Positions 1-62,175 are shown, counted from the stretch's first letter. The stretch is 62,638 bases of DNA from a candidate division WOR-3 bacterium (GCA_965649205.1 CBFGJV010000010.1:23764-86401); one strand, 5' to 3'. Notes: generated by a model from the letters alone, not told the origin. Program-made: numbers and translations.

Positions 1-137
1 CTACCCCCTCTGACGATGACGTTAGACTCACTCGGCGACTAGCAGAGGCAGGGCGAATCCTAGGCATAGCCCTGCTTGACCATATAATTCTTGCCCAAGA
101 TCGCTACTATAGCTTCCGTGAGCACGCTTTACTGTAG
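1..137 (+). CDS. radC: 3' end of RadC (JAB/MPN domain) protein, truncated by the window edge
   Basis: Not in the ORF track. Frame 3 translates TPSDDDVRLTRRLAEAGRILGIALLDHIILAQDRYYSFREHALL*, matching the RadC PSxxD...LGIxLLDHII...YxSF C-terminus; stop TAG at 135-137. Confidence 0.9.
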   Translation, partial: TPSDDDVRLTRRLAEAGRILGIALLDHIILAQDRYYSFREHALL

Positions 138-199
138 GAGAAACAGAATCCGGATGCATATTTTTGTCACCAAACGGCAACACCTACTTGGCAATAGCC

Positions 200-973
200 A
201 TGGACATTCGACGCACAACTGATACCACCGGCATCCCCATAGACAAGGTAGGCATCAAAGGACTTCGCTACCCAATAGTTCTACTCGACAAGGCGAGAAA
301 GCGTCAGCACACAGTAGCGGTCATCAATCTTTACGTATCTCTTCCTCAGACGATACGCGGAACCTATATGGGGCGCTTTGTAGAAATACTGAATCAATAC
401 CATGACGAGATAGATATCCACAAACTTGGAGCCATCCTTCGTGAAGTCAGGCAGCGACTGGAAGCTCAGTCAGCCCACTTGGAGATGGAATTCCCCTATT
501 TTGTGGAAAAGCAGGCCCCCGTGTCGGGTGCAAAGTCACTAATGGACTACCGCTGCTCCATTCAGGCTGACCTCGACGACCGATTCCGCCTTCGCCTGGG
601 AGTTGCGGTACCGGTAGCAACACTTTGTCCGTGTTCAAAAGAGATGCTGGGAACTATGGGCCACAATCAACGCGCAGAAATACGCGCTACAGTGGAACTG
701 CAAGGTTTTCTTTGGATAGAAGACCTCATAGAGATGCTTGAAGATTGTGGCTCCAGCGAAGTCTTCTCCCTGCTCAGCCGCGAAGACGAGAAACATTTGA
801 CCAGCCGGGCGCTGGAACACCCAGCCTTTGTAGAAGATGTCGTCCGCAAGGTCGCCCACAAACTGGAGTCGAGAAAGGAAATCGTTGCCTTCGAGGTGGC
901 GGTAGAGAGCTACGAATCCGTGCATCACCACGAAGCTTACGCCTTTGTAAGCAGACAGAAAGAACAGCCCTGA
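200..973 (+). CDS. folE2: GTP cyclohydrolase IB (FolE2 family), divergent
   Basis: IPIDKVGIKGLRYPI, TLCPCSK, HNQR, DEK, FVEDVVR and ESVHHH motifs. ATG at 200 preferred over TTG at 164. Confidence 0.85.
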   Translation: MDIRRTTDTTGIPIDKVGIKGLRYPIVLLDKARKRQHTVAVINLYVSLPQTIRGTYMGRFVEILNQYHDEIDIHKLGAILREVRQRLEAQSAHLEMEFPYFVEKQAPVSGAKSLMDYRCSIQADLDDRFRLRLGVAVPVATLCPCSKEMLGTMGHNQRAEIRATVELQGFLWIEDLIEMLEDCGSSEVFSLLSREDEKHLTSRALEHPAFVEDVVRKVAHKLESRKEIVAFEVAVESYESVHHHEAYAFVSRQKEQP

Positions 974-53450: not shown

Positions 53451-54644
53451 TCAAGGCGTCGCACGGACCACCAACTCTTCCAATAGCTCCGCCAGCAGAC
53501 GTGCCTGTACGCGACGATCATAGATATCTCTGCTGCCTTGCGTAAACCTCTCCGACTCTTGCCGTAACTGCAGTAGCAATGGAACTAGATTACGCACCTC
53601 GCTGCAGACCAAACCCGCACTACATTGCTCCACTATTCTAGCTGCCTCTTCGGTCCCCTTTCCGTACACCAAAATGGGACGGCGGGCACCCAAATACTCA
53701 TACAGTTTAAGCCCCACTGTCTGCTGCGGCTTACCCACGTAGAGAAGCACATCTGCCGCCTTCATCAATGCACACACCTGTCGATGCGAGAGAGTGCCGA
53801 GCAGTCTTACCTGCTGAGTTCTTGCTAACCGGTTTGCGGTTTCTTTGTCAACCCGGCCGGCAAGATAGAATCGCCCCTCAGGCAGCTGGCTTAAGGCCTC
53901 ACATACCTCCAATATCTCTCTCTGATTCTGCCACAGGTTTCCTACGTGAACTACGCTGAAACCCTCTAGCGTTGCAGGCTCAACCGCAAATTCCTCCGGA
54001 TCAAATCCGTTCGGCAGAACTCTAGCCCGGGAACCGAGAAAAGCAGCCGTGCCCTCATTGACTGCCAGCACCGCATCCGCGTGCTTAACTATGTACTCGC
54101 GCACATGACGTAACAGCACACGCTGAGGTTGAGGAGGCAAAGTAAAACCGGTTGGCCAAGGATCGCGGAAGTCCGTCACCAGCGGAATATGACCATGCGC
54201 CTTGAGTCTTACGCCCAAAAGCAACGCAGTGAACGGAGGTCCGGTGGCAAATATGGCGGCCGGTTTTTCACGATCGATAATGTGTCTGCCGATACGTGAA
54301 GCAAAAGGAAACCAGCCCGCCTTGGAATCGGGAAACAACAGGTAATTCAGCAATCTCGGTCCTCGCCCCAGTGTTTTGCTCAAAACAGGTTTCAATTTCG
54401 ATTTGCTAGGTCTCAGCAAATTCAGAAATCTTGCCGGATCAAAACTCTCCGTACGGTATATCCGCGCCCGAGTCAAATCACCAAGCAGTTCCGAGTCGTA
54501 GTGGTAATAAGCCGCCGGCTTCGCAGTCAGTATGAGTGGCAACCAGCCGAACTCAGGCAAGTACTTGGCCAGTTTAGTCATACGCATCACTCCCGCCAGA
54601 CCCAGTGGCGGGGCATAGTAGCTCACTACAAGAACACGACGCAT
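53451..54644 (-). CDS. GT4-family glycosyltransferase
   Basis: YYAPP...GVMR, DFRDPW, PNGFD and KLYEYLG. Confidence 0.88.
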   Translation of the reverse strand: MRRVLVVSYYAPPLGLAGVMRMTKLAKYLPEFGWLPLILTAKPAAYYHYDSELLGDLTRARIYRTESFDPARFLNLLRPSKSKLKPVLSKTLGRGPRLLNYLLFPDSKAGWFPFASRIGRHIIDREKPAAIFATGPPFTALLLGVRLKAHGHIPLVTDFRDPWPTGFTLPPQPQRVLLRHVREYIVKHADAVLAVNEGTAAFLGSRARVLPNGFDPEEFAVEPATLEGFSVVHVGNLWQNQREILEVCEALSQLPEGRFYLAGRVDKETANRLARTQQVRLLGTLSHRQVCALMKAADVLLYVGKPQQTVGLKLYEYLGARRPILVYGKGTEEAARIVEQCSAGLVCSEVRNLVPLLLQLRQESERFTQGSRDIYDRRVQARLLAELLEELVVRATP

Positions 54645-54666: not shown

Positions 54667-56727
54667 CTAGAATGTCAACGCCAGCTTAGTCGCCTGTACA
54701 CCCAACTGTTGCGATAGCAAAGAGGAAATCTGGCTGGCCGTCCACTCTACCAGTCTTATGCTATCCAAGAATTCCAAAAGACCGTTTATATCAAGAGCCA
54801 GCATATGGTCCTCAACCTGCAGGTCAGGAGGTAGAAGTCGAAAAAACGCACCCGAACCCAAACTGTCTTCCAGCCGGCTTACGTTCTTACGCACTGCCTG
54901 CCTTATCGAATCTTCATCTGGCAGAGGAAAGGTTGACGCAACCGCGTCTCCGGCCGGCAGTGCCAGCAACTTACCATCCACATCCATAGCTGGCACTCCC
55001 TGCAGACTGAGCGCTTCGCTCAACAGGTAACCGTACGTGTTGCCAAGCAGATGCACTACAAACAGCATATCCGCTTCACGAAAACAAGGAAACTCCAGTG
55101 GGGCCAAATCGGGAAAAAGCCTGCTCTTGAGTACCTGGGCCATTCTGTATCCGTATTGACCTGTTCCCGTTCCTTCGAATACTCGGGTGGCGGCTCCCAT
55201 CTCGCGAAAAGGCTTGACCATTATCCGTCTTTCCTTTCTTTGAAACTCCACCAGTTCCCAAGCTTTACCCCCGAGTACAAAAGTGCGAAACAGATAAAAT
55301 ACCGTTCCCAAATGTCTGTTAGTATCAACATCGTAAACCTCGTATTTACCGAAAGTTTTATCCTGAATGTTAGAATGAATCTTACCGTATTCTATCTGTT
55401 TCTCTAACTGAGAACTCAGGAAGTAGATACCAGCCCTTTGTTCGATTATGAGCCCCTTATCAATCAGGTGACGAAACACCCGGCTGAGAAAGTCGGCTCG
55501 TCCATACACCGGTTGAAATAACCGACCTAATGTCTGCATCGTGGTACCGATACGTCGGCGCTGATACATGTAAGAGATCACTTGTTGGGGTATTGCAGAC
55601 AATGAAGGTGTATATCGTTTTTCGTACAGTCTACCTTCCCGACAGCACTGCAGGTAAGTTTCAAACAAAAACCGTTCCCAGCCGTCTGCGTAAAGACCAA
55701 CAAAAAGCAGCCGTTCGCGGCGACGGTTACCTCGCCCGATTCGCTGAAGCAATGAAGAAACATTAAACGGAGGCCTCACCAGTACCACTGCATCTATGTC
55801 ACCAATGTCTATTCCCAACTCCAAAGTCGAAGTACAGCACAGAATACCAAAACGTTCTTCGTTCATTCTCCGTTCAACTTCTTCCCGTACCCGACGATTC
55901 AGACTCGCGTGGTGTACCCATACCCGACCGCAGAAAGGAGGAATCTCAACTTTGCCCGCAGAAGACTCTGCCCAAGCCCGAGAATTGAAGAAAAAAAGCA
56001 GCTTCCGGCATCCTTTGCTCGTCAACGTGGACACTACCTGTTGCGGCCAATCCTCCGTCAACGGCAGCAGCAACTGCTCTATCTCACGACAAGTATTTAC
56101 CTTTATAACCAACGGTTCGGCAAAATACCTGAGTCCTATGTTCTCGTCGTCGATGGTGGCAGACAAAGCACAATACTGAATCCCGGCGTTGATCTGTCGT
56201 AACCTTTGCAGAAGCAACCTGAGCTGGTCACCTCTTGGCGTGCCGTCTACTAGGTGGAGCTCGTCCAGTACGACAGCAGCAAGTCGCTTGAATATGGCCG
56301 GATGCCGACAAAGCAAGGAGTCGAACGATTCTGGGGTCGTAAGAAGCAGAAAAGGAAGTTTTTTCTTTTCTATCGCCGGATGGTCTCCTGTCTTCCGTGC
56401 CAATTCCAAACCCAAATACTCCATTGGCTCTTGTAGCCGGCGATAAAGGTCGTTAACGAGCGCTCTTGTTGGAGAAACATACAACACGGCCAAACAGTTG
56501 TGTTCTGTCCTCTGTCTAGGAGCTGTAATCTGCAGGCTTCTCTCGATTACTGGCGCAGTTACTGCCTCGGTCTTACCAGTGGCAGATGGCGAAATCACCA
56601 CGACATCGCGTCCCTCCATAATCGGAGGGATAGCACGAACCTGAACCTCCGTGAGTTTGCCAAATCGGGAAAAGAAGGGAAACCAGGTTCTTGGTAGCAA
56701 TTGACGAACCAAAGTCTGGGAATTCAC
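54667..56727 (-). CDS. Lhr/BrxHI-like SF2 DEAD/DEAH-box helicase
   Basis: Q motif LTEVQ, SATGKTEA, PTRALVND, TTPES, DELH, SAT, HHASL, TSTLELGIDIG and QRIGR. Confidence 0.9.
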   Translation of the reverse strand: MNSQTLVRQLLPRTWFPFFSRFGKLTEVQVRAIPPIMEGRDVVVISPSATGKTEAVTAPVIERSLQITAPRQRTEHNCLAVLYVSPTRALVNDLYRRLQEPMEYLGLELARKTGDHPAIEKKKLPFLLLTTPESFDSLLCRHPAIFKRLAAVVLDELHLVDGTPRGDQLRLLLQRLRQINAGIQYCALSATIDDENIGLRYFAEPLVIKVNTCREIEQLLLPLTEDWPQQVVSTLTSKGCRKLLFFFNSRAWAESSAGKVEIPPFCGRVWVHHASLNRRVREEVERRMNEERFGILCCTSTLELGIDIGDIDAVVLVRPPFNVSSLLQRIGRGNRRRERLLFVGLYADGWERFLFETYLQCCREGRLYEKRYTPSLSAIPQQVISYMYQRRRIGTTMQTLGRLFQPVYGRADFLSRVFRHLIDKGLIIEQRAGIYFLSSQLEKQIEYGKIHSNIQDKTFGKYEVYDVDTNRHLGTVFYLFRTFVLGGKAWELVEFQRKERRIMVKPFREMGAATRVFEGTGTGQYGYRMAQVLKSRLFPDLAPLEFPCFREADMLFVVHLLGNTYGYLLSEALSLQGVPAMDVDGKLLALPAGDAVASTFPLPDEDSIRQAVRKNVSRLEDSLGSGAFFRLLPPDLQVEDHMLALDINGLLEFLDSIRLVEWTASQISSLLSQQLGVQATKLALTF

Positions 56728-56751
56728 TGCTAATATTGGTCTGCCTCGTGT

Positions 56752-58137
56752 TTATCCTAGAAAGCCACCCTGTGTCCTTACTATATCCAGACTTTCCACG
56801 CAGTACTTAATGAAAAAACGCACTCCTGAACCGCTCCGATCCAGTGCAGCTCGGAATATACGCTTTTGCTCAGACACCGAAATATCAAAAGCGGGGTACG
56901 CCCTTGTGTACACATTAACTAGCGTCGCAAATAGGTCGAGCAGGGAGTTTTCTTTCAGAGGGGCCAGCTCTATCCGGTGGTTTATGCGATTGACCAGACG
57001 TAAGTAGGCATAATCACTAAAGCTGGGAGTAGTTGCAAGTACAAGCAGAATTGTGGGATTCCGGTATATGTAAGGAACAGGCTTCACCTGATTATGAATC
57101 ATATGCGCATTCAGGCGTCTCAAGGTTGAGTCAGCCTGTGCTGTCCTGATCAGTCCTTCCATAAAATTAATACCTTTAGTTAGATAAATAACATCCCATA
57201 GGTGGGTTACCGTTTCCGCTTCGTCTACCAGCAAAACCAAGCCTTGTAAACCCAGCTGGCGCGCCATCCAGCTTAAACCAGAAAGAATGTGACAGTAGAA
57301 ATCAGCCGCAGTAGAAAAATCGTAAAGAGCTGGTATCTTCTGACCGCCTCTCACCCGAGATTTGCTCTGTATTTCTGTTGCGTATTCCTTGGTGCTTTCC
57401 CCCTCAATCCACTGCCAAAATACTTCGGTTTCACCTTGGCCAGTATCCAGTTTTTTCAACTTGCTCAGTACCGGTCCAAAGAAAACGTGGTCCTGCATAT
57501 CCAATTTCTGTGCCTGCCACAGTAAATCGCGAAAACCGTATTCATGATTATCTTTCAGAAACCGCAGATTATGAACTATTTCCCGATACACCCGCTTAGG
57601 ACGGTGCGGAGATACCTCTTGCGGATCAAACTGACATACACTTACAACCATTCCCGCCTTCAAAGCCCGGTGATGTAGGTATTCCAAAAGATGGGTTTTA
57701 CCTGTTCCGTACTCTCCCTCAACTAGATATACATCACCCTTTCCCAGTTTTAAACTCTCCAAGGCACCGTCAAGAATCTCTACCTCCCTATCCCGACCAA
57801 AGGTAAAAGACTCTACATCCCGGTGTGGTACTATACCCAACCGAAATGCCTCGACCATCCGACGGGCTTGAATACCATCAATCTGACCAAAGCGGCCACT
57901 CCCCAATTGGTTCAATCCCGGTTCGAAGTGCGTTATGAAACGTAAGCGACACGCAGGCAGCCACAGTTTAAGACCACTTTGAAACCTAACCAGCAATTCT
58001 GTTCCGCGCCAACGCGTATCTAAAACTTCGCCTTCCCCGAAGACCCCGTGGCTAACAACCTGTGCTGGCTGCCGCTCCGTCTGAGAGTCAGAAATCCCCA
58101 AGGGTGAAGACTCGGCTCGTCCTCTAGAATTCTTCAC
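56752..58137 (-). CDS. DUF2791/BrxD-like P-loop ATPase with N-terminal Tudor-like segment
   Basis: EAFRLGIVP, GRDREV, Walker A GEYGTGKTH and Walker B LVLLVDEAE. Confidence 0.8.
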   Translation of the reverse strand: MKNSRGRAESSPLGISDSQTERQPAQVVSHGVFGEGEVLDTRWRGTELLVRFQSGLKLWLPACRLRFITHFEPGLNQLGSGRFGQIDGIQARRMVEAFRLGIVPHRDVESFTFGRDREVEILDGALESLKLGKGDVYLVEGEYGTGKTHLLEYLHHRALKAGMVVSVCQFDPQEVSPHRPKRVYREIVHNLRFLKDNHEYGFRDLLWQAQKLDMQDHVFFGPVLSKLKKLDTGQGETEVFWQWIEGESTKEYATEIQSKSRVRGGQKIPALYDFSTAADFYCHILSGLSWMARQLGLQGLVLLVDEAETVTHLWDVIYLTKGINFMEGLIRTAQADSTLRRLNAHMIHNQVKPVPYIYRNPTILLVLATTPSFSDYAYLRLVNRINHRIELAPLKENSLLDLFATLVNVYTRAYPAFDISVSEQKRIFRAALDRSGSGVRFFIKYCVESLDIVRTQGGFLG

Positions 58138-59419
58138 TCTCTACTTGCTCCTGCTCTTTCTGACTCAGCCTCTGACCCGTAACCCGCAGGAGTCTGTCTG
58201 CCTCCCTGTCATCAATAACCATATCCGGTTGAGACCGTAGCCGGTGAAAAGCCTCGATAGCAGCTACCACAAAAAGCCGGCGGTAACTGATGTCAAAGAC
58301 AAAAGCCTGGACTGCGCGCTGGGCCAAAGTACGCACTACCCGTTCCCTGGGTTCTTTGGGCAGGACACACGCGTAGGCTGTCTCGAAAATCTCCGCTAAC
58401 TTCGTACCCAGCTGCATAAGAAAATCGACTGGCTCCACTCCCAAATTCTCCAGATTAATCCTCACCCCGACAGGATTGGATTGGGAAAAAGAACTGCGCA
58501 ATCTCTGCTTCAGCGCCTCATATACGCCGCCCGAACCTTCAAGAAGCAAATTCTCATCAGGTATTGCATAGAAAAACATCGCTCCAGGCAACCGGGCGTT
58601 ACCGCATTCGTCGATTATCTGACGTAAATTGTCCAAGGCTCTGCGTTTATCGCGAGAAGAAGATATAGACATTCCCCGTTCTGCTTCGTCGAAAAGAAAG
58701 ATCAATCCGGTGTACCCTATCTCATGTATCCACTGAATAAGAGAACGCAACATTCTGAAAGCCGTGGCTTTATCAATCCGTTCAGAAATGCGATACTGAG
58801 CTCTAAGTTCTTTGGCCACATCTTCACCCTTCAGCCATTGGATAAGATGATTGAACCCCTCGTTTTCGCCAGCCAGTAACGCCAGGAAAGCCCCCTTCAC
58901 CGCGTTACTGTAACTGGTACTTTCTGTCGCTGGCAATTCCTCCACCCGGCGGCTCAGCACTTCCCTTCTATCCGCCTCGCCCCGCCAAACCTCTACCCAC
59001 CTGCGTATCACCGACTCTATTCCCTTGTCCCAAACCGGCAAAGGACGGTCTAAAGGATGGGGAGCCGAAATATTAGCTGCTACAGCGCGATAGACCAGCT
59101 CCAGCTTGTCAAAGGGACACTCGGTGGGATTCAAACCCACGTAAGCCACACAGTAGTTATGTCGGAAAGCTAGATTCCTTATGCTATATAGAAAGTGGGT
59201 CTTGCCCCCTCCGTAGTTCCCAGTTATAAGCTTGAAACTGGAAAGGTTGTATGGCAATATACCCTTCAGATATTCCTCTTCTATCACCTGCAAATATCTC
59301 CCTAAACCAATCGTGAAAGCTTCGATACCAAACTCGGGCGGCGTTCCGGTCGCACCCAGCTTGTTAATAATCGCCTTAGCTAGTTGTGAATCCACTTGTG
59401 TTTCCTCTCGCGCGCCCAA
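58124..59419 (-). CDS. DUF2791/BrxD-like P-loop ATPase (start may be GTG 59395)
   Basis: GTPP, FKLITGNYGGGKTHF, QWLKGE, GYTGLIFLFDEAE, LRQIID and YEALKQRL; SD GAGG before GTG 59395. Confidence 0.85.
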   Translation of the reverse strand: MGAREETQVDSQLAKAIINKLGATGTPPEFGIEAFTIGLGRYLQVIEEEYLKGILPYNLSSFKLITGNYGGGKTHFLYSIRNLAFRHNYCVAYVGLNPTECPFDKLELVYRAVAANISAPHPLDRPLPVWDKGIESVIRRWVEVWRGEADRREVLSRRVEELPATESTSYSNAVKGAFLALLAGENEGFNHLIQWLKGEDVAKELRAQYRISERIDKATAFRMLRSLIQWIHEIGYTGLIFLFDEAERGMSISSSRDKRRALDNLRQIIDECGNARLPGAMFFYAIPDENLLLEGSGGVYEALKQRLRSSFSQSNPVGVRINLENLGVEPVDFLMQLGTKLAEIFETAYACVLPKEPRERVVRTLAQRAVQAFVFDISYRRLFVVAAIEAFHRLRSQPDMVIDDREADRLLRVTGQRLSQKEQEQVESEEF

Positions 59420-59457
59420 GACGTCGGGTTAAGACGGCCAAACAGTTTCTATCAAAT

Positions 59458-60303
59458 CTACTCATTGACAAACGACACATGAGAATAGTAGGTACCCTCG
59501 CCCTCCTCATTGTCCGGTACCCACAATGCCTTAGTCTTGTCCGTAGTGGCATCGAACGTAGCCACGTGCAGCTTGAATTTAGCCTCTATCTTGGACAACT
59601 CCCCAGAAGTCTTCAACCTGTAAAGGTCGTAGCTAAATCTAAAGCGAGGATATTCTCGAAAGTTTTCCTGTGCCGGGTTAGCCCGAAAAGCTTTGGGCTG
59701 CATGGCCAGAACCAATTCTCCCAAAACGTCCAGCAGCGCCACCCGTCCCCCAACTGTCACTCCCTGAACCAGACAAACTTTGTGATAAGCATTAATAATA
59801 CCCTTTAGCAATCTCTCAGGTTCTTCGGAGTTCTCCTTCAAACTATTTGTCCACTGTACGAGAACTTTCACCAGTTCTTCTGGCACAAGCCTAGAAAGGA
59901 CTTTCAGTCGTTCTACCTCCGGACCCCAGAACAACTGTCCCCTACCCTGAGCAAAGTCTAAACGCAAAGAGAACATGCCCACACGTAATACCGGTAGCTG
60001 TCCCCGTAACCTCAAGTTTGACTGCTCCAAGCCGGTGGCCAGTCTCTGACCGAACCCGAATCTGAACTCTTCCTTATCTTTTTCCACTCTCATCCGTTCT
60101 TCCTCGAGCCATTTTGTCAAAATACTTCTTACCTCGGCTTCGGGAAATTCCGTAATCAGATTTGCCAGCACCACCAGCTCTTTCTCTCTGTAGTATGCAT
60201 TGTTGACCGGTTCTGCCAGAAGTTTACGGTAACCAGCAAGTCGCTGTAGCAGTTTCTGGCTGTTAGTAGCAAGCCTTGTCAGCAGTAGGAACAGTTCTTC
60301 CAT
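59458..60303 (-). CDS. Hypothetical protein, first gene of the ATPase-ATPase-helicase operon
   Basis: 281-aa ORF directly after a near-consensus promoter. Helical N-half; C-half YPRFRFSYDLYRL...LHVAT...LWVP. No family recognised. Confidence 0.8.
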   Translation of the reverse strand: MEELFLLLTRLATNSQKLLQRLAGYRKLLAEPVNNAYYREKELVVLANLITEFPEAEVRSILTKWLEEERMRVEKDKEEFRFGFGQRLATGLEQSNLRLRGQLPVLRVGMFSLRLDFAQGRGQLFWGPEVERLKVLSRLVPEELVKVLVQWTNSLKENSEEPERLLKGIINAYHKVCLVQGVTVGGRVALLDVLGELVLAMQPKAFRANPAQENFREYPRFRFSYDLYRLKTSGELSKIEAKFKLHVATFDATTDKTKALWVPDNEEGEGTYYSHVSFVNE

Positions 60304-60314
60304 CGGAATTTTCT

Positions 60315-60342
60315 AGTATAAACCACCCCTTTTCTCTGTCAA
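60315..60342 (-). promoter_or_regulatory. Near-consensus sigma70-type promoter for the four-gene operon
   Basis: TTGACA-N16-TATACT, 11 nt before ATG 60303. Confidence 0.7.
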
Positions 60343-60440: not shown

Positions 60441-62141
60441 CTACTTTACAACCACCAATGGACGTATCTTTGCCAGTTTCTTAGGGCCAATTCCAGAAAC
60501 GTTCAAAAGCTCCTCTACTGTGCTAAACCGACCCCGCCGCGTACGATATTCGACTATCCGCTTCGCAGTCATCGGCCCTATGCCCGGCAGTCGTTCTAGC
60601 AGCGTCGCCGCGGCGGTATTTATATTGATAGGAAAGGGAGACGAATCAGTAAGGCTAGTTGTAATCAGTCCCGGGCCCGCTAAGTACAATTTGGGACGAG
60701 GTCCAATTCTCAGCGTATCCTGTGCACACGCCCAATCAATCCACAATTCAGTAAGATTCCTTTCCGAAAGTCTTCCCATGTTGGCAATTCCTCCCGCCTC
60801 CAGCAGCTGTTCCGTTGTGGTCACCCGATACTGCGACTTTCGCTCCCGCAACCTGATTCTGGCAACCCCACCAACGGTTGGCCAGGCAGTAGTATCGCCG
60901 AAAACGAACAAGTCGGCACCAGCTAGAGCGGGGAAAAGTTGCTCCGTATCGGTATGTTGAAACAAACTCGCCAGGGCAGTCTCGCTCATCACAACCGTCC
61001 GCACAGGCTCACAAAAAGGGACAACATCAAAAAGCATTCTCTTGGTCTGTAAGCCTTCACTCAACCCCAGACCTAAGGATGCCCACGGTACAAATGCAAT
61101 GTCGGCACGGGTTTCCACCCTTACCGCCTCGGCTACAAGCGAGCCCAAGGTTCTATCCTCGCCTTCTGCTAACGGTTCCGATTTCACAAAAGGGCCCGGC
61201 GCATCCATACCTCCCTGTCTCAGTTCCTGAACTAACAGGGCGACAATGGAATCTGAATTAACCGGCACGACGTTCATTGTACGTGACTGCACTCCATATT
61301 TACGACGGTCGGCTCGACTAAACATGATATCCACCACGGTTATTCTCTGACCGTATTGGCCAGCAAACACTAGCCGATTCCCATCAAGAACTGCGCCTTC
61401 TGCATAAGGAGATATTACCAAGTCCAATCTGGGGAATGTATCAAGAAGCATTGTAGCCGCCTTGGTATCCAAATGACCAAACACTACAACTACATCAGGC
61501 TTTTCTGGCTCGATCGCCGCCAGATAGCGCCGAAGTTGAAGAATAGGGTCCTCTGGAGCAAATCCTCGCGTATCTATTCTGCGATTCAACTTAGGAATAT
61601 CTGGATCAGAAACCACGATCAGTGCTACCTTGACTCCCTTGACTTCCTTGATGAGAAATGGACGAAACAGCGGCACTTTCCTATGCAGCACCACATCCAA
61701 CATTGGGTCCGCCAACACAGGAAAATGAGCAAGACTTGCCAATACCTCCACGTTTTCCGCCCCGCCGCTGAAATCCCGTGCTCCGAGGGCGACCGCATCA
61801 TAGCCCACTAGATTCATAAACCGAATCGCCGCCCGCCCCTGGGTTGCCTGGGCCTCTGGCGAACCAAAGGCAAACCCGCCGCAATCCAATACCAATGTTG
61901 CATCCGTTTTAAGTTCGTTTATTAAGTAAGCTAGGTGAGCCCACCCACCTAACTGCCTGCGTGGCAGACCGGGCGCATCGAAATCCGAGGAAGGCAAAAG
62001 ACGACAGCATAGGTCAGCTGTGGCCAAGATTCGCAACTGCTGAAAATCAGCCTGCCCCAAAGAAAAACCCAGCAAAAGCAAGCCAACAGAAACGGTGCAA
62101 ACAGAAAGATGCCGGCCGGCGCAGGGAGGGGAAACACCCAC
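60441..62141 (-). CDS. 5'-nucleotidase-like protein (degenerate active site) fused to a ComEA helix-hairpin-helix domain
   Basis: Metallophosphoesterase scaffold (GGWAHLA, MNLVGYDAVALG, FPVLA, PFLIKEVKGVKVA) and C-terminal ININTA...LPGIGP...VSGIGPK. Start reassigned to GTG 62141. Confidence 0.8.
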   Translation of the reverse strand: MGVSPPCAGRHLSVCTVSVGLLLLGFSLGQADFQQLRILATADLCCRLLPSSDFDAPGLPRRQLGGWAHLAYLINELKTDATLVLDCGGFAFGSPEAQATQGRAAIRFMNLVGYDAVALGARDFSGGAENVEVLASLAHFPVLADPMLDVVLHRKVPLFRPFLIKEVKGVKVALIVVSDPDIPKLNRRIDTRGFAPEDPILQLRRYLAAIEPEKPDVVVVFGHLDTKAATMLLDTFPRLDLVISPYAEGAVLDGNRLVFAGQYGQRITVVDIMFSRADRRKYGVQSRTMNVVPVNSDSIVALLVQELRQGGMDAPGPFVKSEPLAEGEDRTLGSLVAEAVRVETRADIAFVPWASLGLGLSEGLQTKRMLFDVVPFCEPVRTVVMSETALASLFQHTDTEQLFPALAGADLFVFGDTTAWPTVGGVARIRLRERKSQYRVTTTEQLLEAGGIANMGRLSERNLTELWIDWACAQDTLRIGPRPKLYLAGPGLITTSLTDSSPFPININTAAATLLERLPGIGPMTAKRIVEYRTRRGRFSTVEELLNVSGIGPKKLAKIRPLVVVK

Positions 62142-62147
62142 GCGAAC

Positions 62148-62175
62148 AATATAGCTCTCAAAATACAATTATCAA
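62148..62175 (-). promoter_or_regulatory. Sigma70-type promoter, probable leaderless transcript
   Basis: TTGATA-N16-TATATT, 6 nt before GTG 62141. Confidence 0.55.

Follow-up and report, generated by a model that had tools for sequence, protein, structure and literature searches.

What do two BrxD-like ATPases and an Lhr-type helicase do in an operon that lacks the core of a bacteriophage exclusion (BREX) system? The question is raised by a stretch of 62,638 nucleotides from a candidate division WOR-3 bacterium (GCA_965649205.1 CBFGJV010000010.1:23764-86401; the window, below), in which four minus-strand open reading frames (ORFs) at 54667-60303 form an operon. In order, they encode a protein without a family name (U), two divergent ATPases (A and B) and a superfamily 2 (SF2) helicase (H). 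The initial annotation, made from the sequence alone, proposed a stand-alone unit for anti-phage defence or repair and left room for a housekeeping role. The reading favoured here, with a probability of roughly one half, is that A and B are a split ORC/Cdc6-like ATPase pair that would load the Lhr-type helicase to help maintain the genome of WOR-3 bacteria. It leans on how the genes are inherited and on a handful of domains, detected by profile or predicted, one of which, a Tudor domain on ATPase B, the initial annotation had missed.

Inheritance within WOR-3

Phylum-wide searches for U, B and H covered 272 WOR-3 genomes, of which 126 have U, 129 have B and 122 have H. All three were found in 114 genomes, at least one in 133 and none in 139, and they were jointly present or jointly absent in 253; the 19 genomes with one or two of them are mostly fragmented or incomplete assemblies. 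Among the other genomes of the operon's own order the genes are close to universal (U 62/65, B 64/65, H 60/65) and nearly always single copy. By family the pattern is nearly all-or-none: family f1 has U in 41/43 genomes, B in 43/43 and H in 40/43, and the cassette is missing from f6 (0/11), f15 (0/14) and f28 (0/12).

Sixty loci were selected by family spread and contig size among the 126 genomes that have U. The order U-A-B-H is seen in 37 of them; in 12, some of which lie at contig ends, no H adjoins U-A-B; U is alone in 10, and in one there are two ORFs between U and A-B. Where the operon is split, the partner genes sit elsewhere in the same genome: U is apart from A-B in f5, f37, f41 and f43, H is apart from U-A-B in f3, f32 and part of f13, and in two genomes the genes lie at three places (G260: U, B and H; G266: U, A-B and H). 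In G260 (L275:3439-7621, contig C9), ATPase B is away from A, and its gene overlaps the beginning of a 952-codon gene whose motif we read as UvrD/AddA-like. Such splits would be expected if the genes were not a single machine at all but a set in decay or with loose links only, A-B, U and the helicase each working in a pathway of its own and the operon being a trace of the past. We think this very unlikely, given joint presence or absence in nearly all genomes, a gene order common to several bacterial phyla and metagenome loci, and invariant catalytic motifs.

A tree of ATPase A, built by a quick method from 36 sequences, recovered f1, f2, f4, f12 and f13+f14 with Shimodaira-Hasegawa-like approximate likelihood ratio test (SH-aLRT) values of 98-100. 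G109 (f11) joins f32 and not its own class, and G049 joins Poribacteria and Ignavibacteria (SH-aLRT 100); the loci of these last three have a short helicase of 523-547 residues. Inheritance in WOR-3 thus appears from the tree to be mostly vertical, with some transfer. The flanking genes differ by family and are housekeeping-like. A second cassette copy, with a 532-residue helicase, lies at a contig end in G132 (L274:326-3982, contig C72), which has the core copy as well; it may have been acquired recently or may stem from an error in binning.

Single copy, near-universal presence in the order, a tree that follows taxonomy and survival of operon break-up favour housekeeping over defence. Of the roles first suggested, defence is therefore the less supported in this lineage, and the housekeeping alternative has gained. 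Co-inheritance, the housekeeping neighbours, the lack of U on plasmids and the lack of an effector (both below) are further grounds for genome maintenance.

Two unlike ATPases and a helicase

A and B are both PF10923 proteins (156 and 102 bits) and are the only ones found in a genome-wide search (2.15 Mb, 98% complete). Their best PADLOC matches are BrxD (142 for A, 89 for B) and then SngB (73 and 47), and against the BrxD equivalog model NF033438 they score 143.6 and 89.4, with a cut-off of 350. They are 25% identical over 117 residues, which bears out the earlier description of two divergent BrxD-like ATPases. The motifs GNYGGGKT/FDEAE, GEYGTGKT/VDEAE and DELH and the intact 686-residue helicase are likewise confirmed, the motifs showing little or no variation among the 36-43 orthologues aligned.

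Both ATPases have an AAA+ core with intact Walker A/B motifs and conserved arginines. In A (36 rows) the Walker motifs, a YEALxQR motif that is a putative arginine finger and R373, a putative sensor II, are all invariant; in B (43 rows) the Walker motifs and R440 are invariant, but there is no invariant arginine where A has its putative finger. Since A keeps an arginine that B is without, the two may be an asymmetric pair. Only 50 residues follow the last invariant-arginine motif in A (past R373) and 21 in B (past R440), which leaves neither with room for a winged helix of about 80 residues. In another locus (L200:793-6565), three tandem BrxD-like ATPases precede the helicase and the contig has no U match.

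H matches BrxHI (243 bits) and SngC (217 bits) in PADLOC, and DEAD and Helicase_C in Pfam. Searches of all four proteins with Pfam, PADLOC and NCBIfam turned up no effector domain, whether a nuclease, a methylase or anything else. A heteromeric ATPase that loads a helicase would fit this anatomy, and other Lhr helicases have roles in DNA repair (according to the available text of PMC9841417 and PMC7437997).

Gene U

U was first described as belonging to no recognised family, and it has stayed nameless: Pfam and NCBIfam give no match and PADLOC a single weak one (E 0.027). The ESM Atlas returned only unnamed clusters (Chloroflexota, Acidobacteriota) for U, with recognition below the reliable level, and no usable named match for residues 158-281. 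The two models of U have predicted local distance difference test (pLDDT) values of 92.8 and 95.4, and divide the protein into three parts (Table 1). The C-terminal part is covered by 8 of 50 rows among the structure-search matches listed. All 8 are presumably of winged-helix type and six of them, we take it, ORC1/Cdc6 chains, with 77-83 residues aligned at a root-mean-square deviation of 3.1-3.6 and with Z scores of 5.0-6.1 that are modest and fall within the tool's "common arrangement" range. Foldseek found nothing at E ≤ 1e-3 with either model (E > 0.2). A C-terminal winged helix of the ORC1/Cdc6 type is consistent with these matches, modest as they are, and should be taken as a lead and not as proof. 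The middle domain has generic structural matches only (best Med17, Z 8.0), and a search with full-length U was uninformative, its rows being taken up by generic helical bundles.

Even so, this is a first structural reading for a nameless protein family of 960 clusters (50% identity, E ≤ 1e-3), in which the 10 clusters looked up include members named Promethearchaeota, Helarchaeota and Thermoplasmata. Four longer homologues (P0391, P0412, P0416 and P0450) have a Rho_N/HeH-like module as an insertion (E 1e-5 to 6e-4; one above the Pfam cut-off), which points towards nucleic-acid binding; the cluster of P0391 is named Promethearchaeota/Helarchaeota and those of the other three are unnamed. A winged helix on U would also suit its neighbours, because neither A nor B is long enough to include one and BrxD itself is described, in the available text of PMC12839542, as an ORC/Cdc6 AAA+ ATPase without DNA-binding domains that is proposed to load BrxHI.

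Distribution outside WOR-3 and the case for defence

The full U-A-B-H order was found in 4/4 genome loci outside WOR-3 (Gemmatimonadota, Poribacteria, Syntrophaceae and Ignavibacteria) and in 12/48 metagenome loci, most of the others being short contigs. With the 37 ordered WOR-3 loci, this upholds the proposal of a stand-alone four-gene unit. Among 72,556 plasmids there was no U match, and B had only weak matches at the level of BrxD.

Neighbouring genes were compared with PADLOC, setting aside matches to generic domains (AAA proteases, ABC ATPases, OmpA, radical SAM). A restriction-modification (R-M) or candidate defence gene lies near 5/20 sporadic loci (84 ORFs, 5 kb) and credible defence genes lie near 2-3/23 core loci (125 ORFs, 3 kb), a weak contrast between searches made at different distances. 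The other 15/20 sporadic loci have no credible defence neighbour, and many of their contigs are short. The enrichment in defence islands that had been put forward as a check is thus only weakly seen in this sample.

These neighbours bear on a second reading, in which the operon would be a Shango-like anti-phage or anti-plasmid system: U would replace the TerB sensor, the ATPase would have been duplicated, invading DNA would be unwound or blocked without a nuclease, and the whole would have become fixed in WOR-3 as core immunity. Family resemblance supports it, since the best matches are BrxD/SngB and BrxHI/SngC and since Shango protects 10-100-fold (according to the available part of PMC10250203). 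So do the scattered occurrence outside WOR-3, the sporadic loci beside R-M or candidate defence genes, the second copy in G132 with its short helicase and the separate short-helicase clade of G049, Poribacteria and Ignavibacteria. On the other hand, a single copy, a vertical tree and retention after break-up are unusual for defence cassettes, ATPase A is 67-79% identical across the family, no plasmid has U, and three quarters of the sporadic loci stand apart from credible defence genes, many on short contigs. On balance we consider this reading possible but doubtful for the WOR-3 operon.

Several findings nevertheless weigh against genome maintenance, in addition to the modest scores of the winged helix and the empty Foldseek searches. 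Among characterised systems, the ATPase-helicase pair has its nearest kin in BREX-2 and Shango, both of which serve in defence. Outside WOR-3 the cassette is sporadic (1/151 genomes of the class Ignavibacteria), 5/20 of its sporadic loci have the neighbours described above, and in L181, a distant metagenome contig, a PglX/type IIG-like methylase abuts U. Within the phylum it is dispensable, being absent from 139/272 genomes, and because the genomes are kin the counts represent few independent events. UvrA/UvrB, Mfd, RecG, RecA and DnaA are all present in the operon's genome, so that, canonical PcrA excepted, there is no obvious gap for the operon to fill. The maintenance and defence readings may both be true, one per clade. 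The module was probably at first a mobile cassette of the defence type and later became domesticated in one WOR-3 lineage, which would make it a possible example of a defence module turned core gene set.

The Tudor domain of ATPase B

A profile of the N-terminal region of B has as its top matches the C-terminal domains of UvrD (7egs_B, E 1.1e-5; 6yi2_A, 1.5e-5; 7egt_B, 5e-4), followed by other Tudor domains, and hhalign pairs it with the Tudor domains of WOR-3 PcrA at 97.5% probability. H30, G34 and G36 are invariant in 43/43 rows. Single B sequences match PF21196 only weakly (3/31, best E 0.019). In the metagenome set the domain was detected in 22/27 near-complete B genes (L189, which is not assignable, was left out), and one ATPase B (L174:7803-9335) has a CxxC...CxxC zinc-ribbon-like segment ahead of it.

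According to the available text of PMC8318588, RpoB and UvrB each present a TGE hairpin as the docking site for the Tudor of PcrA. PcrA genes were surveyed in 41 WOR-3 genomes (L124-L163 and L273), and a C-terminal Tudor was present in 19/24 cassette-negative and 4/17 cassette-positive genomes. In the operon's genome a profile of WOR-3 PcrA Tudors matches only ATPase B (E 6.8e-4). The main UvrD-like helicase of that genome (674 residues; G000:C4, L122:313-2337) scores far under canonical PcrA, and no Tudor can be recognised at its end. Many genomes of its order lack a TIGR01073 match at E ≤ 1e-80, and by family such a match is missing from 19/43 f1, 9/10 f2 and 6/6 f3 genomes.

These counts, together with the finding that B has the genome's only such domain detected, at first suggested a swap of the B Tudor for the PcrA Tudor. 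In its full form the idea is that B would stand in for PcrA/UvrD at RNA polymerase, its Tudor sitting on the beta subunit and bringing the helicase to R-loops or stalled transcription complexes in lineages with a Tudor-less PcrA. The histidine and aromatic positions of the B Tudor look conserved, by our own matching of residues, when set against the available text of PMC5397179, in keeping with the idea. The partner surface, however, does not follow. The (T/S)GE motif of RpoB is present in 7/10 cassette-negative genomes with a PcrA Tudor and in 1/10 cassette-positive genomes without a detected one (PF21196 misses some Tudors, a caveat on the status of most of these ten); it is absent from the operon's genome, and is found in 0/2 genomes with neither cassette nor PcrA Tudor and in 1/2 with both (3/26 loci were not parsed). 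The RpoB TGE hairpin tracks the PcrA Tudor, not the cassette. Moreover, the position matching PcrA K712 is variable in B (R18, C7, K5 and T5 of 43), 3/4 carriers outside WOR-3 keep a PcrA-sized Tudor-bearing frame, five cassette-negative genomes are also without a PcrA Tudor, and the whole pattern may reflect one or two ancestral events. We therefore regard a stand-in for PcrA as improbable. Given that the RpoB motif does not follow the cassette, that the K712 position varies and that outside carriers keep a PcrA-type Tudor, the B Tudor probably has a partner other than RNA polymerase.

One candidate lies within the operon. H has a conserved hairpin-like motif, YxVxDxx(T/S)GxxIG, that loosely resembles the docking motif of the PcrA Tudor without its glutamate. 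As a speculative suggestion it could bind the B Tudor, or it may just belong to the Lhr barrel.

Apart from the cassette, the survey found that the C-terminal Tudor of PcrA has been lost in several WOR-3 families (f12, f13, f14, f18, f19, f37, f38 and f40-f42), and that the TGE hairpin in RpoB SI1 is eroded or deleted in most examined genomes without a PcrA Tudor. This natural co-loss supports the published PcrA-RpoB docking model. The docking motif of UvrB was uninformative as an indicator, its glutamate being missing in cassette-positive and cassette-negative genomes alike. Two uvrB genes (L245 in G031 and L246 in G052) have long open frames of 1183 and 1291 codons in which the model is matched only from position 42; these are possibly inteins or fusions.

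A proposed mechanism

Under the genome maintenance reading, the predicted winged helix would give U its hold on DNA, and A and B would assemble on U and DNA as an ORC/Cdc6-like hetero-oligomer. The B Tudor would recruit a partner (the helicase's own hairpin is our guess), and ATP turnover would load or activate H at a stalled or damaged site, where it would serve in repair. Replacement of DnaA or Mfd was rejected as the operon's task, both being present in the genome, and the presence of DnaA also makes origin firing unlikely.

A bolder version can be offered only tentatively, and we would not expect it to hold in full. In it, the operon would be a bacterial "split ORC/Cdc6" in which a free winged-helix subunit and two unlike ATPases of the initiator clade come together on DNA and load an SF2 helicase by way of a PcrA/UvrD-type Tudor; a domesticated immune cassette would have become core repair or fork rescue where PcrA was trimmed or lost, with relatives that reach the Asgard archaea.

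Features of the operon and neighbouring genes

The four ORFs were found where the initial annotation had placed them, with intergenic gaps of 38, -14 and 24 nt (U/A, A/B and B/H) if A is counted from its TTG. More probably A starts at the GTG (Table 1), since GAGG stands ahead of it and a database protein, P0103, has the same length of 423 residues; the first gap is then 62 nt. The operon's own promoter sequence is also confirmed. An equivalent lies directly before U in 6/7 relatives inspected by eye, usually 5-11 nt from the ATG, and a promoter so close to the start leads one to expect a near-leaderless transcript. The number of promoter-like sites in the region is not above chance (11, against 8.1 ± 2.9 in shuffles). 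The GC content of the operon (0.46-0.52) is close to that of the window (0.49-0.55).

Table 1. Positions of the operon's genes, promoter and predicted domains in the window.
Feature	Nucleotides	Residues	Strand	Description
Helicase H	54667..56727	686 aa	-	SF2, Lhr/BrxHI/SngC type, motifs intact
Hairpin-like YxVxDxx(T/S)GxxIG in H	55306..55344	462-474	-	conserved in alignment
ATPase B	56752..58137	461 aa	-	divergent BrxD/DUF2791
PcrA/UvrD-type Tudor of B	57940..58059	27-66	-	N-terminal; VxHPxFGxGxV
ATPase A	58124..59395	423 aa	-	from GTG 59395; 431 aa if TTG 59419
Gene U	59458..60303	281 aa	-	without family name
U three-helix bundle		1-82	-	predicted
U alpha/beta meander		80-158	-	predicted
U winged-helix-like domain	59461..59823	161-281	-	predicted, structural matches
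Promoter TTGACA-N16-TATACT	60315..60342		-	sigma-70-type; 11/12 matches; 11 nt ahead of U ATG

Downstream, 22 nt past the end of the helicase, lies a gene for a glycosyltransferase of family 4 (GT4; 53451-54644, minus strand). It is found in the same place in most f1 and f4 loci and not in other families, and is probably a lineage-specific neighbour. Directly upstream, 60441-62168 (minus strand) encodes a 575-residue protein with a degenerate 5'-nucleotidase-like region and a C-terminal ComEA-type helix-hairpin-helix; no such protein was found beside U in 60 loci of relatives.

Comparison with known systems

The nearest relative is the BrxD-BrxHI dyad of type 2 BREX (phage growth limitation, Pgl). 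As there, a PF10923 ATPase directly precedes an Lhr/Ski2-like helicase, and A, B and H have the dyad as their best PADLOC matches; the adjacent pair are homologues of the dyad that fall below the NF033438 cut-off. The differences are a second, divergent ATPase, the Tudor fusion, gene U, core vertical inheritance and the lack of the PglX, PglZ and BrxC partners of type 2 and type 6 BREX in the genome or scanned flanks. That lack, claimed at first from the window, holds up. The genome's only PglZ match (PF08665) is an ORF with a receiver-like N-terminus on contig C9, away from the operon, which we read as PorX-like, and PglX has one weak match (E 4e-4, on C15). In the flanks of 43 loci, PglZ models had no match (209 ORFs, E ≤ 1e-10), PglW models none (a search confined to these flanks), and a PglX-like gene was found once (L181). 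BrxC had no match in the flanks scanned; genome-wide, where no dedicated BrxC model was run, PF10923 finds only the operon's genes. With no other PF10923 gene, PglZ confined to another contig, PglX weak and flanks without the core, a BREX remnant was rejected, and the initial concern that relatives might carry pglX, pglZ or brxC beside the operon was not borne out in the flanks scanned, L181 apart.

Shango (SngA, SngB and SngC) is described in the available part of PMC10250203 as a TerB-like protein, an ATPase and a helicase, with no nuclease named. The operon shares with it the stand-alone combination of a partner, ATPase and helicase without a methylase, and its proteins match SngB (73 and 47 bits) and SngC (217 bits). 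It differs in having two ATPases, in that A, B and H all score higher to BrxD/BrxHI, and in U, which has no TerB or SngA match in Pfam, PADLOC or NCBIfam, as the first description without TerB had it. PF15615 (TerB-C) has no match in the operon's genome, and control genomes gave none either. Shango was described from defence hotspots, again in the accessible text of PMC10250203, whereas the operon lies amid housekeeping genes.

With ORC1/Cdc6 the ATPases share an AAA+ clade, according to the available text of PMC12839542. There are two unlike ATPase subunits in both, and the C-terminal domain of U best matches the ORC1/Cdc6 winged helix; the predicted winged helix of the operon, however, is on a separate gene and does not follow the AAA+ module. 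An Lhr-type helicase, moreover, is a non-ring SF2 enzyme and not MCM. The Tudor of B is homologous to that of PcrA/UvrD, but it is N-terminal on an AAA+ ATPase instead of C-terminal on a superfamily 1 (SF1) helicase, its K712-like position is variable, and the RpoB TGE motif is not retained with it.

No description of the four-gene unit was found in the literature, a search that left aside subscription papers and the supplementary gene neighbourhoods of PMC12839542, and the unit does not appear in the available text of PMC12839542, 10.1101/2025.09.30.679545, 10.1101/2022.05.11.491447 or PMC10250203. The ATPase-helicase pair is an already known module; what is new here is the Tudor of B and the predicted winged helix of U. 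The role of BrxD is called uncharacterized in the available text of PMC12839542, and the operon isolates a BrxD-BrxHI-type pair from the rest of BREX while adding these two interpretable parts, so that helicase loading becomes testable with four soluble proteins. If the split ORC/Cdc6 version is true, the operon would be a helicase loader of a new kind and would serve directly as a model for BrxD-BrxHI in BREX and for Shango.

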